From the UHGV virus genome UHGV-0038498: a stretch of DNA of 64,000 bases; one strand, 5' to 3'. A model generated the notes under the pieces. That model worked only from the letters and a program-made list of their open reading frames with translations, made no database searches and was not told where the DNA came from. The stretch is from a virus. A program made the position numbers and the translations under genes. The first letter of the stretch is position 1, and each line of letters begins with the position of its first letter. Positions 22,609-62,720 of this stretch are shown piece after piece.

Positions 22609-23418
22609 TTAGAAACGAGATGCGACTTTCGCATATACACTTACAATATCTTCTGCACCAGGTGCAGCTTTATCTTCTACAGCTTCAGTGACGAAATTCA
22701 GTCCGGCTGCTTCAGTATCAGGAGTATTTATACCCTCAGTAATAGTGCTTTCATCTTTATTAGACTTCTTCACCATTTCTACGATGGCACTCAATTTACT
22801 TGAGAATTCATCTGAATAATCCATACCTTCGACCAGAGCAGAGACTTTTTCTTTTTGAGACTCAGTCAGATCTTTAGTACTTTCGCTCAATGCCACTTCA
22901 CGCTGCACATAATTGATATATGCGTCGCGCATATTGAGTTCTTCGAACAGACGAGCTGATTCTTCTTTATGTTCTTGCAGCTCTTCTTCCATTTCAGCTA
23001 CAACATCAACTGATTCTTCTGGAACAACAACGTTGTGTTCAACAAAGAGCTCTTTTAATCCACCAAGCATGGATTCAAACAGTTCGGCTTTGATGCCTTT
23101 ATCAACTGCTAATTTATTTTCAGCGAGCCATTCTTTTGCAAGATGGTCGATGAATTTAGAAGCTTGCTCAGCGATTTTCTTCTCAGCTTTTTCTTCGGCT
23201 TCTTCTTTATTTTTTTCTACTTCTTCTTCTGCTTTTTCAGCAATTTTAGCGATATGAGATTCAGCTAATTTAACGGCGTGCTGCTTGACGGTAGCTTCGA
23301 ATACAGTGCCGAAAGTTTCTTTTGCTTCCGGAGAAATATTAACTGATTCGAAAATACTATCAAGAGCAACGGAAGCATCAATTTTTTGCGCTTCAGCAAT
23401 CAGTTGTTCTTTAAGCAT
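22609..23418 (-). CDS. 22: prohead core scaffold protein gp22
   Basis: 269-aa acidic, helical ORF; T4 gp22 length; late promoter at 23446-23453. Confidence 0.85.
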   Translation of the reverse strand: MLKEQLIAEAQKIDASVALDSIFESVNISPEAKETFGTVFEATVKQHAVKLAESHIAKIAEKAEEEVEKNKEEAEEKAEKKIAEQASKFIDHLAKEWLAENKLAVDKGIKAELFESMLGGLKELFVEHNVVVPEESVDVVAEMEEELQEHKEESARLFEELNMRDAYINYVQREVALSESTKDLTESQKEKVSALVEGMDYSDEFSSKLSAIVEMVKKSNKDESTITEGINTPDTEAAGLNFVTEAVEDKAAPGAEDIVSVYAKVASRF

Positions 23419-23445: not shown

Positions 23446-23453
23446 TATTTATA
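23446..23453 (-). promoter_or_regulatory. late promoter for gene 22
   Basis: TATAAATA on minus strand 28 nt upstream of gp22 start. Confidence 0.6.
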
Positions 23454-24087
23454 ACGCTTTTTTCATGGCCTCTGCGAGAGCCATATAGGCGTCATCGGCA
23501 CTTGTATCGGCTTCCGCCGTCTGTGATTCGGTAATTTCCTTAGGAGTTACCCATGCATCTGGAGCACTTGGACCCCATACTGCATCAACACCTACAGTTA
23601 ATTTGAATCCTTCGTTTACGATACGATAACCTTTATTTGTGTCAGTCAATGAACCTAATCCACGAGAAGAAACTCCTGGAATCCATCCGGCACGAATATT
23701 AGCTGCTAATTTATCTCCAGGACCATGGTCACCTTCAATAACACGAGCTCGTCCGTATACGTCATTTCCTTTCCACCACATATCTTCTATAATGATAGCG
23801 GCTTGCATTGGGTCAACATTAGCGCGTGGAGGATGATTTAATTCTCCGAGAGCTTGTTTAGTTAAAACTTGCTCATTGATATAGTCTTTTACCGCTTTTT
23901 CTAATATGCGTTTTGGATAAAGACGTTTATTTCTATTGACGACTTCCGCTTGCATGAATATTCCTTCGATGTATAAACCGGGTTTTAAACCGAGGTCTTT
24001 TCCATCATGAGATTCAAGCATTGGCACGCCATCAATAATTTCGCCAGGTTGACCCCAAGTTTCAATTAGTAATTGGGGTTCATTCAT
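23449..24087 (-). CDS. 21: prohead core protease gp21
   Basis: 212-aa ORF; T4 gp21 length and position. Confidence 0.9.
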   Translation of the reverse strand: MNEPQLLIETWGQPGEIIDGVPMLESHDGKDLGLKPGLYIEGIFMQAEVVNRNKRLYPKRILEKAVKDYINEQVLTKQALGELNHPPRANVDPMQAAIIIEDMWWKGNDVYGRARVIEGDHGPGDKLAANIRAGWIPGVSSRGLGSLTDTNKGYRIVNEGFKLTVGVDAVWGPSAPDAWVTPKEITESQTAEADTSADDAYMALAEAMKKAL

Positions 24088-53009: not shown

Positions 53010-53060
53010 TTTCACAAAGTTGTTTACACGCTGATGAGGTAGTGATACTATTATCTCATC
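53010..53060 (+). promoter_or_regulatory. early-type promoter cassette, copy 1 (upstream of IPI-like gene)
   Basis: ATTTCACAAAGTTGTTTACA with -35-like GTTTAC (53022-53027) and -10-like TACTAT (53046-53051), 18-nt spacer. Confidence 0.55.
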
Positions 53061-53081: not shown

Positions 53082-53369
53082 ATGAAAACTTTCAAAGAGT
53101 TTACTTCTACAACTACCCCGGTTTCTACCATTACCGAAGCTACTCTTACTTCTGAAGTTATTAAAGCAAATAAAGGACGAGAAGGTAAACCCATGATTAG
53201 CTTGGTTGATGGCGAAGAAATCAAAGGTACTGTTTACCTAGGTGATGGGTGGTCTGCTAAAAAGGATGGTGCTACAATCATTATCTCTCCTGCTGAAGAA
53301 ACTGCGTTGTTTAAAGCTAAACACATTTCTGCGGCACATCTCAAGATTATTGCTAAAAATCTTTTGTAA
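53082..53369 (+). CDS. ipI: internal head protein, IPI-like (95 aa)
   Basis: N-terminal MKTFKEFTSTTTPVSTITE-A capsid-targeting leader with (I/L)xE cleavage site; early-type promoter upstream. Confidence 0.65.
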   Translation: MKTFKEFTSTTTPVSTITEATLTSEVIKANKGREGKPMISLVDGEEIKGTVYLGDGWSAKKDGATIIISPAEETALFKAKHISAAHLKIIAKNLL

Positions 53370-53375
53370 TAAATA

Positions 53376-53420
53376 TTTCACAAAGTTGTTTACATAGGGT
53401 TTTAGTTGTGATACTATTAC
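53376..53420 (+). promoter_or_regulatory. early-type promoter cassette, copy 2
   Basis: Same ATTTCACAAAGTTGTTTACA block; GTTTAC 53388-53393, TACTAT 53412-53417. Confidence 0.55.
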
Positions 53421-53445
53421 CCTATCAACTACCGAGGAGAATAAA

Positions 53446-54403: not shown

Positions 54404-54430
54404 TCTTGCTTAAGAGCCTTTGTTAATAAT
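54404..54430 (+). promoter_or_regulatory. possible middle promoter upstream of HNH endonuclease gene
   Basis: MotA-box-like TGCTTAA then TAATAAT about 12 nt downstream. Confidence 0.3.
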
Positions 54431-54443
54431 TGGGAATTATATT

Positions 54444-55052
54444 ATGGATACTAAATTAGCTGAAATTTTTGAAGGAAAACATCCAAATTTTAGTACAGGA
54501 AAGCTGAAAGACAAAATAATAAAAGAAAATATTTTTCCATACGAGTGTGCAATTTGTAAAATTTCAAAATGGCAAAATAAGCATATTGTTCTGCAATTAG
54601 ACCATATTGATGGAAATAACAAAAATCATCTTAAATCAAATTTAAGATTATTATGTCCAAATTGCCATTCGCAAACTGATACTTTTGCTGGTAAAAATAT
54701 TAAAAATAATAAAAAGCGTTATAATGTTAGTGATGAAGAAATTTTAAACGCACTATTAAATTCGGCTACTATATCATCTGCAATTACTTCATTAGGTTTA
54801 AGTAAAGGCGGAAACTATAAAAGATTCATTAAAATTGCTAATGATAATAAATTATATCATTTACTGGTAAATATTAATGAAAAGATTTTAACTGATGAAA
54901 TTTATGAAGAATTAGTTAAAATCGATTATTCTAAATTTGGATGGGTTAGTAAAGCTGCTAAAATAATAGGTATAAGCCCACAAAAAGCTAGAAAATGGAT
55001 AGAACGAAAGTGTCCAGAATTGATAGAACAATCTTTTTCACGTAATAAATAA
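54444..55052 (+). CDS. HNH homing endonuclease, free-standing
   Basis: CAIC...HIVLQLDHIDGNNKNHLKSNLRLLCPNCH (HNH/zinc-finger nuclease motif); ORF-track start 54420 is TTG, first ATG is 54444; abuts the tRNA array. Confidence 0.75.
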   Translation: MDTKLAEIFEGKHPNFSTGKLKDKIIKENIFPYECAICKISKWQNKHIVLQLDHIDGNNKNHLKSNLRLLCPNCHSQTDTFAGKNIKNNKKRYNVSDEEILNALLNSATISSAITSLGLSKGGNYKRFIKIANDNKLYHLLVNINEKILTDEIYEELVKIDYSKFGWVSKAAKIIGISPQKARKWIERKCPELIEQSFSRNK

Positions 55053-56373: not shown

Positions 56374-56711
56374 GAAACCGGGTCGCTACCGGTAAGTCGT
56401 CGGACTGATGTTCCCTGAGTAAGGAATTGTGTTAATAAATCTTTATGATTTGTTGATGCCCTCTTACATTACAGCAGAAACGGCGCACAGAATTATCGAT
56501 TCGAGGAAATATCTTTGCCGTAAGCCGAGTAGCGTTTTTGACGGAACGTTCGGATATGGTCGAGATATGGCCTTTTAAAAATATTGAGTAGCGTCAACTG
56601 CTTAATAACCGGGTTCGAATCCCGGCGTTTCGTACAAACACTTGCCTTAGCAGGTGGAACCCGACAAGGTTGCCGCAAGGCTTAGCCCCGACCGAAAGGT
56701 TGGGGCTTTTT
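56374..56711 (+). ncRNA. candidate structured non-coding RNA segment with tRNA-like T-arm, ending at an intrinsic terminator
   Basis: 340 nt with no plausible ORF on the plus strand; several stable hairpins; CCGGGTTCGAATCCCGG T-arm followed by acceptor-like CGTTTCG pairing with upstream CGGAACG; terminator hairpin 56685-56706 plus U-run. Confidence 0.3.
56685..56711 (+). terminator. intrinsic terminator closing the non-coding segment
   Basis: GCCCCGACC-GAAA-GGTTGGGGC + TTTTT. Confidence 0.65.
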
Positions 56712-56713
56712 AG

Positions 56714-56721
56714 TATAAATA
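56714..56721 (+). promoter_or_regulatory. late promoter upstream of the 157-aa internal-protein-like gene
   Basis: TATAAATA directly after terminator, 41 nt upstream of ATG. Confidence 0.55.
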
Positions 56722-56761
56722 TAGTAGTATATTAAATCCACGAATTAAAACAGGAAATAAG

Positions 56762-57235
56762 ATGAAATCATATGCTCAATTTTTAAATGAAGCGGTGTTA
56801 AATGAAGCATCTAGCACCGAAATTCAAGCTGTCGCAAAAGCAGCCATTGCAGCGGGTAAATATTCCTATAAAGATGCTTCTGACGAATCACGATTCCAAT
56901 TTGCTCGCGACATGAAAGCAGAAGGATTTACGGGAAATGCAGTTAGTATGGCATGGAAAAGTTTAGTTGCTACTGGCGCTGCTTTTGCAAAGGCTTCGGG
57001 TAAACCTGCTCCTAAAGCAGATCCTAAAGCTGCACAAGAAAAAAATATCGTTAAAGGAATTATCGCTAAATATGAAGCTATCCTTAAAGAGCTTTTAGTA
57101 ATCAAAACCGAAGGCCAAAAGTTAGCCCGTGCTTATAGTTTCAAAGATAATCCACATGTTCACTCTCTTGAGTATGTTGAAGACATCCAAAAAATTATTA
57201 AAGACCGCATTTGGTCTGCTAAACAAATCAAATAA
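56762..57235 (+). CDS. internal-protein-like packaged protein (157 aa), Ala/Lys-rich
   Basis: N-terminus MKSYAQFLNE-A / VLNE-A resembles T4 internal-protein leader and prohead-protease (L/I)xE sites; late promoter 56714-56721; flanked by terminators. Confidence 0.6.
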   Translation: MKSYAQFLNEAVLNEASSTEIQAVAKAAIAAGKYSYKDASDESRFQFARDMKAEGFTGNAVSMAWKSLVATGAAFAKASGKPAPKADPKAAQEKNIVKGIIAKYEAILKELLVIKTEGQKLARAYSFKDNPHVHSLEYVEDIQKIIKDRIWSAKQIK

Positions 57236-57244
57236 CATTCTTAA

Positions 57245-57270
57245 CCCCAGCCGAAAGGTTGGGGATTTTT
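57245..57270 (+). terminator. intrinsic terminator after the 157-aa internal-protein-like gene
   Basis: CCCCAGCC-GAAA-GGTTGGGG + ATTTTT; near-identical stem to the 56685 terminator. Confidence 0.65.
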
Positions 57271-57390
57271 GGTATCTAGGCCTTTCTGGGCCTCTCTAGG
57301 CATCATTTAGTTTCTACCCTTTATAATATATTATCCTATCCTTTAATTGCCCCTCCCTTCCCTAGAATTCCCTAAAACTTTTTAAAAAAT

Positions 57391-57436
57391 TTTTCACAAA
57401 ACTGTTTACATCCCTGTTCTTCCATGGTACTATACA
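57391..57436 (+). promoter_or_regulatory. early-type promoter cassette, copy 3
   Basis: TTTTCACAAAACTGTTTACA; GTTTAC 57404-57409, TACTAT 57428-57433. Confidence 0.55.
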
Positions 57437-61486: not shown

Positions 61487-61903
61487 ATGACTCGTATTAA
61501 TTTGACTTTAGTATCTGAACTTGCTGATCAACATTTAATCGCAGAATACCGTGAATTGCCGCGTGTTTTTGGTATAGTTCGTAAACATGTGGCAAATGGT
61601 AAACGGGTTAAAGATTTTAAAATATCTTCCGAGTTTATTTTAGGTTCTGGTCATGTCACGTTCTTTTACGATAAGTTAGAATTTTTGCGAAAGCGCCAAT
61701 CAGACATTATAACGGAATGCTTAAAACGTGGGTTCAGTATAAAAGATACTGAAGTTCCTGACATCAGCGATATTCCAGCAGAATGGAAAAATGATTATAA
61801 TCCATGCAAATCAGCTATTAAATTGAGTCAACAACGACTCGATGAAAAAATTTTAATGAAGCCATACTGGTATAAATACTATGGTAAAAATATTTACATT
61901 TAA
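61487..61903 (+). CDS. denV: endonuclease V, pyrimidine-dimer DNA glycosylase DenV
   Basis: 138 aa [29 protein letters not shown]... Confidence 0.95.
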
Positions 61904-61912
61904 AGGAAACGT

Positions 61913-62230
61913 ATGAAAACGTATAAAGAATTTATTGCAGAATCTGCCGCAGGACAACGTGTAGAAGGCGGTTATATTTGGATTGAAGAAGTTGAGCCAC
62001 CTAGTCGTACTTCTACTGGTAAATGGAAAATTACTGTTGATGGTCCTGGCGGAAAACGCAGAACTTTAAAAGAAATTAATGGATATTATAGTGAAGCTCT
62101 TTCAGACGCGGGCACTTATATGATGCAAATTATGATTAAAAATCCAGAAAATCGTTTTGCAGCTAGAGTTTTCCGTCGCATTGGAAATAAACTTTACGAT
62201 GCATATTCTAAAAATTTTCCAAAAGCATAA
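61913..62230 (+). CDS. internal head protein (IPII position, 105 aa)
   Basis: N-terminal MKTYKEFIAE-S capsid-targeting leader. Confidence 0.65.
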   Translation: MKTYKEFIAESAAGQRVEGGYIWIEEVEPPSRTSTGKWKITVDGPGGKRRTLKEINGYYSEALSDAGTYMMQIMIKNPENRFAARVFRRIGNKLYDAYSKNFPKA

Positions 62231-62246
62231 AAATTAAAGGAAACAC

Positions 62247-62720
62247 ATGAAAACATATCAAGAATTTATCACTGAAGCAGCTATTAATTCTCAAATTATT
62301 GCTGAATCTTTTACTGATCTTTTGAAATTTAAAAAAGGTCAAAAAATCACTGCTGTATTGGATGATGGTACAGAAGTTGAGATGGATGTACAGGGATATA
62401 ATTATGCAGTAGATGGAAAACTGTATAATAAATCTCACGCTAAATTTGATTCATTTGACGACTTTGTTAATACAGTTGAAGATGAAAAAACTCGTAGATC
62501 CATTGCAACTGGCGACGCTAAGGTTCTTATGGCGCACGGTCATGAACGTATCCGCGCTAAGCAGAATAAAATGGGTGAAGATAATTTCGCATTAGTTGGT
62601 TATCAATCTGGTAAACAAACTTATGGTTATCAGCGTACTGCTACCATGTATAACAAAAATGGTAAAATCGCTTTCGTGAATAGCAAAGGTTCTATTCAGT
62701 ACGTCAAATCATTCAAATAA
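62247..62720 (+). CDS. internal head protein (IPIII position, 157 aa)
   Basis: N-terminal MKTYQEFITE-A...IIAE-S leader with two (I/L)xE sites. Confidence 0.65.
   Translation: MKTYQEFITEAAINSQIIAESFTDLLKFKKGQKITAVLDDGTEVEMDVQGYNYAVDGKLYNKSHAKFDSFDDFVNTVEDEKTRRSIATGDAKVLMAHGHERIRAKQNKMGEDNFALVGYQSGKQTYGYQRTATMYNKNGKIAFVNSKGSIQYVKSFK

Follow-up and report, generated by a model that had tools for sequence, protein, structure and literature searches.

A leader-bearing gene between repeated terminators at the rnaC-e.8 junction of Tequatrovirus genomes is a candidate for a previously unrecognised internal head protein

The subject of this analysis is a small gene between rnaC and e.8 in a stretch of 64,000 nucleotides (nt) of the virus genome UHGV-0038498; the whole stretch, which is part of a Tequatrovirus (T4-like) genome and whose plus strand corresponds to the T4 minus strand, is called the window here, and the small gene the target gene. 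The target is a real gene that is constrained and not hypervariable, and it is a self-contained 559-bp presence/absence cassette between repeated terminators. The explanation that we favour, with a confidence only a little better than even, is that its product is a previously unrecognised T4-like internal head protein that is packaged, cut, ejected and then neutralises a host defence. Taken on their own, the proposition that the target protein is a packaged internal protein is probable, and the proposition that it is an anti-defence effector is given somewhat less than an even chance. The gene was singled out in an earlier note, made from the sequence, as a candidate injected anti-defence effector; the observation in that note was correct and the core of its interpretation was reasonable, and its interpretation overall is partly supported. 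The target gene and its signals are as follows.

56762-57235, plus strand: coding sequence of the target gene, 157 amino acids (aa), 17.2 kDa, isoelectric point (pI) 9.5; matches phrog_2280 (unknown function)
56752-56755, plus strand: Shine-Dalgarno sequence AGGA, 6 nt before the ATG, read from the sequence
56714-56721, plus strand: T4-type late promoter TATAAATA, adjoining the terminator T-run and 41 nt 5' of the ATG
56681-56716, plus strand: left copy of a 36-nt direct repeat, containing the intrinsic terminator of the tRNA/rnaD/rnaC transcription unit
57240-57275, plus strand: right copy of the direct repeat, the target gene's own intrinsic terminator

The target protein, whose N-terminus is MKSYAQFLNEAVLNEASS, is rich in alanine and lysine (17.8% and 13.4%, respectively), as had been noted before. 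It corresponds to RB32ORF133c, AR1_137, fD1 g140, and ime09 F413_gp249, Bas42 carries it as bas42_0248, and the exact 157-aa protein is found in phage ime09 and in others. The pairwise ratio of nonsynonymous to synonymous substitution rates (dN/dS) of the target gene was 0.04-0.09, which indicates strong purifying selection, and most Tequatrovirus copies were more than 95% identical; the idea that this gene is hypervariable is therefore not borne out. That the open reading frame (ORF) is spurious was ruled out by these dN/dS values together with the detection of the protein by mass spectrometry.

Each terminator forms the core of one copy of the 36-nt direct repeat, and the two copies are 86% identical and 559 nt apart. 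The left terminator consists of a stem-loop at 56684-56707 with a GAAA loop and a T-run and folds at -20.3 kcal/mol (z = -4.5), and the right one has its stem-loop at 57245-57264, also with a GAAA loop and a T-run, and folds at -16.2 kcal/mol (z = -2.8). The octamer TATAAATA was found 25 times in the window compared to 9.4 +/- 3.1 expected, and none of 100 shuffles reached 25; one occurrence alone is not significant, and the copy in front of the target gene is correctly placed. The late promoter and the pair of near-identical terminators that had been claimed for this gene thus hold, and so does its description as a self-contained cassette, T4 having one copy of the repeat and no gene. The position of the promoter, the terminator that precedes it and a layout that is kept in three genera suggest that the target is expressed late and as an insulated unit: the upstream tRNA/rnaC terminator would insulate the target gene, and late transcription would come from its own promoter.

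The gene order in this part of the window is 57B, ipI, trna.4 to trna.2, the tRNA cluster, rnaD/rnaC, the target gene, e.8 to e.2, nudE, e, and two ip genes, and around the target gene it is collinear with that of T4, AR1, and RB32. In T4, the terminator after rnaC continues into the sequence that lies past the second terminator in the window. No homologue of the target was found by tblastn in the loci of T4, T2, and T6, and in T2, T6, and Yersinia phage PST the gap between rnaC and e.8 is too short for the gene. In RB32 the gene had been annotated as 'hypothetical protein; flanked by 34 bp imperfect direct repeat', and the same annotators named Ip4, Ip5, Ip7, and Ip9 elsewhere in that genome. 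Directly after the target there is, in G50 and in about 165 further records, another cassette with its own terminator.

2462-3025 of L005 (phage vB_EcoM_G50), at the same site as window position 57276: second leader gene, 187 aa, starting MKTYAEFLTE/AAK (here and below the slash marks a predicted cut)

This second G50 protein also matches phrog_2280 (8e-53) and is distant kin of the target protein (hhalign probability 70%); the window does not have it. The site therefore holds no gene in T4, T2, T6, and PST, one in the window, RB32, AR1, and fD1, and two in G50-type phages. The target gene lies outside both recognised ip loci, that between 57B and tRNA.4 and that downstream of e, which is a trait of location and not of mechanism. 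Since recent work speaks of two Ip loci (PMC12373910) and this site holds zero to two leader genes, the rnaC-e.8 junction looks like a third internal-protein locus that has been unrecognised so far. About 130 nt past the right copy of the repeat there is an early-type promoter, TTTACA-17-TACTAT (57405-57433), that belongs to e.8. At the cassette's downstream edge we also observed a short motif, TTTGG(T/C)AT(C/T)TAGG, after the terminator, at 57265-57290 in the window, at about 3490-3510 in L006, and also in L008 and L016; it is present in Tequatrovirus, in Mosigvirus, and in metagenomic relatives as well as at the empty site of T4, and it may belong to the recombination boundary or to the regulatory region of e.8.

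The target protein was found by tblastn in 512 phage records, in 387 of them at 80% identity or higher, and the neighbouring e.8 was found at 90% identity or higher in 511 records. From this, roughly three quarters of the Tequatrovirus records carry the target, a rough figure because the collection contains duplicates. The gene had been presented as an extra one, and in this respect the earlier note has to be revised: the gene is no oddity of this phage, since carrying it is the majority state in Tequatrovirus and at least two further genera have it at the same site. In Mosigvirus and in Jiaodavirus the same order of terminator, late promoter, leader ORF, and terminator follows the tRNA cluster, the late promoter of the homologue being TATAAATA in Jiaodavirus KpV477 as it is in G50, AATAAATA in Mosigvirus APCEc01, and CATAAATA in the metagenomic contig L008. 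In KpV477 (L007, 3495-3731) a stop codon cuts the reading frame short after 78 residues and the annotation gives it as two small ORFs, and a full-length Klebsiella version of 177 aa is found as a protein of phage KP01 (P0011); the homologue is apparently decaying in some lineages. Because it is syntenic in Mosigvirus and Jiaodavirus, the target gene is probably ancestral and was lost in some lineages. This synteny also rules out a recent insertion peculiar to this phage. Recombination between the terminator repeats could add or remove the 559-bp cassette, and loss by this route in the lineages of T4, T2, T6, and PST is more likely than recent insertion.

The N-terminal decapeptide is the feature from which the packaging of the target protein is argued, and the elements that bear on it are the following.

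56762-56791, plus strand: MKSYAQFLNE, the predicted capsid-targeting sequence, which gp21 is predicted to cut after E10 (L-N-E/A)
56783-56808, plus strand: the 11-nt sequence TTAAATGAAGC twice, 15 nt apart (15-bp tandem duplication)
23449-24087, minus strand: gp21 prohead protease (Pfam Peptidase_S77, 1.4e-111), the enzyme expected to cut the leader
22609-23418, minus strand: gp22 prohead scaffold core protein (Pfam T4_CASP, 8e-90), which capsid-targeted proteins join

It has been shown with IPIII mutants that residues 4 and 7 mainly govern targeting and residues 8 and 10 processing, and that gp21 cleaves after L/I-x-E (PMC9026906). The ORF does begin with MKSYAQFLNE followed by Ala, as had been stated, and its leader agrees with every experimentally defined requirement of capsid targeting: it has Y4 and F7 for targeting and L8 and E10 for processing, so that all four critical residues are there, and Ala follows at P1'. 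In fact, the 15-bp duplication doubles LNEA and thereby gives two consecutive predicted gp21 sites, L8-N9-E10/A11 and L13-N14-E15/A16, and the predicted mature N-terminal peptide is AVLNEASSTEIQAVAK when the cut is after E10 and ASSTEIQAVAK when it is after E15. The homologues in Mosigvirus and the more distant ones do not have the LNEA duplication and have a single predicted gp21 site. Both the protease and the gp22 core that packaging would call for are encoded within the window. In an alignment of nine members of the family that goes down to 26% identity only 8 columns are invariant, and M1 and F7 are among them; in the same nine relatives position 4 is always Y or F, and [LI]-x-E occurs within the first 16 residues of each. 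The leader is thus kept while the rest of the protein diverges, and this is the strongest computational evidence that the leader is functional.

It could be argued that the target is a late cytoplasmic protein that is never packaged and that its leader resembles those of internal proteins because of shared ancestry or 5'-end recombination among small late genes. Such an explanation would account for the leaders of T4 IPII and IPIII matching, by tblastn, those of the Ip4 and Ip10-like proteins and not that of the target, and for two distant homologues that overlap the upstream ORF and have no late promoter within 110 nt; it would also fit with the low count of 5 identities in 10 residues between the target leader and the capsid-targeting sequence of IPIII. 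However, the capsid-targeting sequence of IPI is equally divergent from that of IPIII, the four critical leader positions are kept in relatives whose identity is as low as 26-30% and that have diverged almost everywhere else, and the leader of the neighbouring paralogue is even more canonical. Moreover, the first ten residues of IPIII suffice to package foreign proteins (PMC9026906). We consider it unlikely, therefore, that the target protein stays in the cytoplasm, and capsid targeting through the leader is strongly inferred.

Direct though weak evidence suggests that the target resides in the head. In a published LC-MS/MS set from purified fD1 (liquid chromatography with tandem mass spectrometry; PXD026812), g140, which is 97% identical to the target protein, was particle-associated at the strict threshold, and so were Ip4 (g129) and the IPI-like protein (g146). 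The preparation was impure, and because of this the detection of g140 raises the odds only modestly; it is also the sole virion evidence, which leaves some room for a cytoplasmic protein. The same detection in mature fD1 virions speaks against another explanation, that the target is an accessory of the prohead core or scaffold which works in head assembly, not after injection, and is broken down or expelled as the head matures. There are three [LI]-x-E motifs in the target, the third being internal (ILKE/L, after residue 110), and gp22, gp67, and gp68 are likewise cut at several sites; in the structural model the C-terminal coiled-coil hairpin, too, resembles scaffold-like helices. However, the target is dispensable in T2, T4, T6, and PST, and it lies in an accessory region away from the head-gene cluster at 20-24 kb, and a scaffold role is very improbable.

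The proposed course of events, if the target is an internal head protein, is that MKSYAQFLNE acts as a capsid-targeting sequence through which the protein would enter the gp22 scaffold core of the prohead, and that gp21 would then cut after E10, and possibly also after E15, so that the head would contain a basic protein of about 15.5-16 kDa, as we infer from its predicted sites. By analogy with the known internal proteins, the mature target protein would be ejected together with the DNA. Within the mature protein the following parts can be distinguished.

56807-57001, plus strand: three-helix domain at the N-terminus (aa 16-80), where the family is best conserved, with the motifs GKYSY, RFQF, and AWKS
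56987-57031, plus strand: Lys/Pro/Ala-rich linker AKASGKPAPKADPKA, with low predicted local distance difference test (pLDDT) values and no secondary structure, its composition kept in all relatives
57023-57223, plus strand: C-terminal long helical hairpin, aa 88-154 (AlphaFold)

AlphaFold predicts the N-terminal domain with confidence (pLDDT 92.6 when modelled alone), followed by the disordered linker and the C-terminal hairpin. No family was matched by the target protein in Pfam, NCBIfam, and PADLOC, and in PHROGs only phrog_2280 was; the profiles PF11634 (IPI_T4) and DUF7412 gave no match. Against IPII and IPIII the hhalign probability was below 1%. This rules out an IPII or IPIII homologue that has moved to a new site. 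The remote homology search that the earlier note had proposed was run as a profile search of 1.84 billion representative proteins; it gave 13 matches, all of them small phage proteins of the target's own family, and no functional family was matched. Among the approximately 72 named entries in four 90%-identity clusters (one that holds the target, two made up of closer homologues, and one with the G50 paralogue) none carried an internal-protein name, all being hypothetical or uncharacterised, and among the tblastn matches listed, 60 for the target and 25 for the paralogue, none was named beyond that either. In a literature search no mention of RB32ORF133c was found.

The composition of the mature protein leads to the question whether, once packaged, it acts on the phage DNA and not on a host enzyme; it would then bind or coat the genome within the head or in the course of ejection, and serve in charge neutralisation, in ejection, or in physically shielding the DNA as it enters. 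With 24 lysine and arginine residues compared to 16-17 aspartate and glutamate residues (pI 9.5) the mature protein is basic, binding to DNA at low salt is known for T4 internal proteins (PMC9026906), and the Lys/Pro/Ala-rich composition of the linker is conserved across the family; purifying selection and cross-genus synteny also suit a phage-intrinsic partner better than a changing host target. However, T2, T4, T6, and PST do without the target, which makes it dispensable for packaging or ejection, and IPII and IPIII, which are also basic and were long held to be DNA counter-ions, proved to be GmrSD inhibitors (PMC12373910). An action on the phage DNA is thus rather unlikely.

Returning to an internal protein that neutralises a host defence, the target would block a defence that acts on the incoming DNA with glucosylated hydroxymethylcytosine (glucosyl-hmC), the likeliest being a variant of a type IV restriction enzyme; this action is proposed by analogy only, with Ip1, Ip2, and Ip3, each of which inhibits a distinct GmrSD (PMC12373910). 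Bas37, too, has a leader-bearing gene at its ipI locus, and this gene is reported to be needed only where the host has type IV systems (bioRxiv 2025.11.20.689424). Several GmrSD variants that are active on T-even phages have no known inhibitor yet, and five GmrSD clusters are in this position (PMC12373910). There are, however, several points that weigh against this explanation as a whole. In the fD1 preparation DenV, NudE, and lysozyme were scored too, as were 672 host proteins, and of the 277 fD1 phage proteins 113 (41%) passed as particle-associated. The likeness of the target leader to that of IPIII, with half of the residues shared, is limited. Comparisons of sequence and of fold gave no match between the target and a known anti-defence protein, and ip4-ip10 gave no reproducible inhibition of the GmrSD variants tried (PMC12373910), from which it follows that a leader alone does not guarantee an anti-GmrSD role. 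Finally, the conservation, the cross-genus synteny, and the strong purifying selection are not as a fast arms race predicts, and a stable partner, which may be the phage DNA, would suit the conservation of the family no less well than a host enzyme that changes fast.

A further possibility, which we put forward as speculative and doubtful, is that phrog_2280 is a distinct class of injected cargo that is bound to the genome and that either protects it from, or blinds, a non-GmrSD defence or reprograms the host at entry, the rnaC-e.8 site being then a third anti-defence hotspot. The modelled architecture of such a cargo would be a three-helix domain that is winged-helix-like, the Lys/Pro/Ala linker, and a coiled-coil hairpin. 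If this were true, the hotspot would have been overlooked because the site is empty in T2, T4, and T6. Most natural T4-like phages, many therapeutic candidates included, carry the target family and the neighbouring paralogue, and their absence from these three laboratory T-even phages probably explains the lack of study and the 'hypothetical' labels. The two proteins are new candidates, and the junction a defined third locus, for anti-defence screens, and the empty site of T4 is a natural insertion point for gain-of-function tests.

A six-frame scan of the 64 kb, which took ORFs of 40 aa or more and looked for those that start with M-K-[TSA]-[YFW]-x-x-[FLIM], gave exactly four leader ORFs, all on the plus strand, beginning at 53082, 56762, 61913, and 62247. 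The number of leader genes that had been given before is therefore right. The description of the set as IPI, IPII, and IPIII plus one is not, because the three besides the target are the internal proteins IPI, Ip10-like, and Ip4.

53082-53369, plus strand: IPI (Pfam IPI_T4, PF11634, 2e-53), 99% identical to T4 IPI
61913-62230, plus strand: internal protein of 105 aa, Ip10-like; the gene has a TATAAATA of its own at 61871
62247-62720, plus strand: Ip4, 157 aa (DUF7412)

Apart from the leader, nothing in the window was matched by T4 IPII or IPIII in tblastn. The Ip10-like protein, encoded downstream of gene e, has no homology to T4 IPII or IPIII and matches phrog_3966 (unknown function), and its public labels are inconsistent, being 'hypothetical', 'IpII', 'internal head protein III', and 'ip10'. 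Direct repeats of an early-type promoter (TTCACAAAGTTGTTTACA...GTGATACTAT) flank ipI at 53012-53060 and 53378-53425, and thus the ipI cassette is bounded by repeated promoters and the target cassette by repeated terminators. In place of tRNA-Gln the window has an ORF (54420-55052; about 203-210 aa) whose HNH-endonuclease signature is weak (Pfam HNH 0.0054, below the cut-off); homology to AR1 ends 9 nt into tRNA-Gln, and ARAGORN found no tRNA-Gln in the window. From its sequence it looks like tRNA-Gln was replaced by a homing endonuclease. A scan with Rfam, which is without rnaC and rnaD models, found tRNAs only.

When the target is compared to known systems it is closest in kind to IPII and IPIII, with which it shares a decapeptide with Y4, F7, [I/L]8, and E10 followed by Ala, a small, basic, Ala/Lys-rich protein, a late promoter, and a dispensable gene that is variably present among T-even phages. 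It differs from them in having no detectable homology beyond the leader and in lying at the rnaC-e.8 junction, whereas their genes lie downstream of gene e, and the processing, the injection, and a GmrSD target are ascribed to it by analogy. T4 IPI/IPI*, the injected inhibitor of the GmrSD from E. coli CT596, is likewise a small leader protein encoded in a cassette flanked by direct repeats. However, the leader of IPI is 19 residues long and the IPI fold is alpha/beta, whereas the target is predicted to be all-helical and does not match PF11634, and the repeats that flank ipI are early promoters whereas those of the target are terminators. The internal proteins Ip4-Ip10 (Repoila et al. 1994, as cited in PMC12373910) are similar to the target in that they are absent from T4, were recognised only by their leaders, and have no known target, but all of them are encoded in the two classical ip loci and the target gene is elsewhere. 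Finally, in the PeSL cassettes (Arbiol 2010; Comeau 2014, PMC4122927) a small accessory gene likewise lies between repeated regulatory stem-loops, and the target also behaves as an indel unit between close relatives. PeSLs pair a flanking stem-loop with an early promoter, whereas in the target cassette the left stem-loop is fused to a late promoter and the repeat is the terminator of the tRNA cluster itself, which places the target outside this class.
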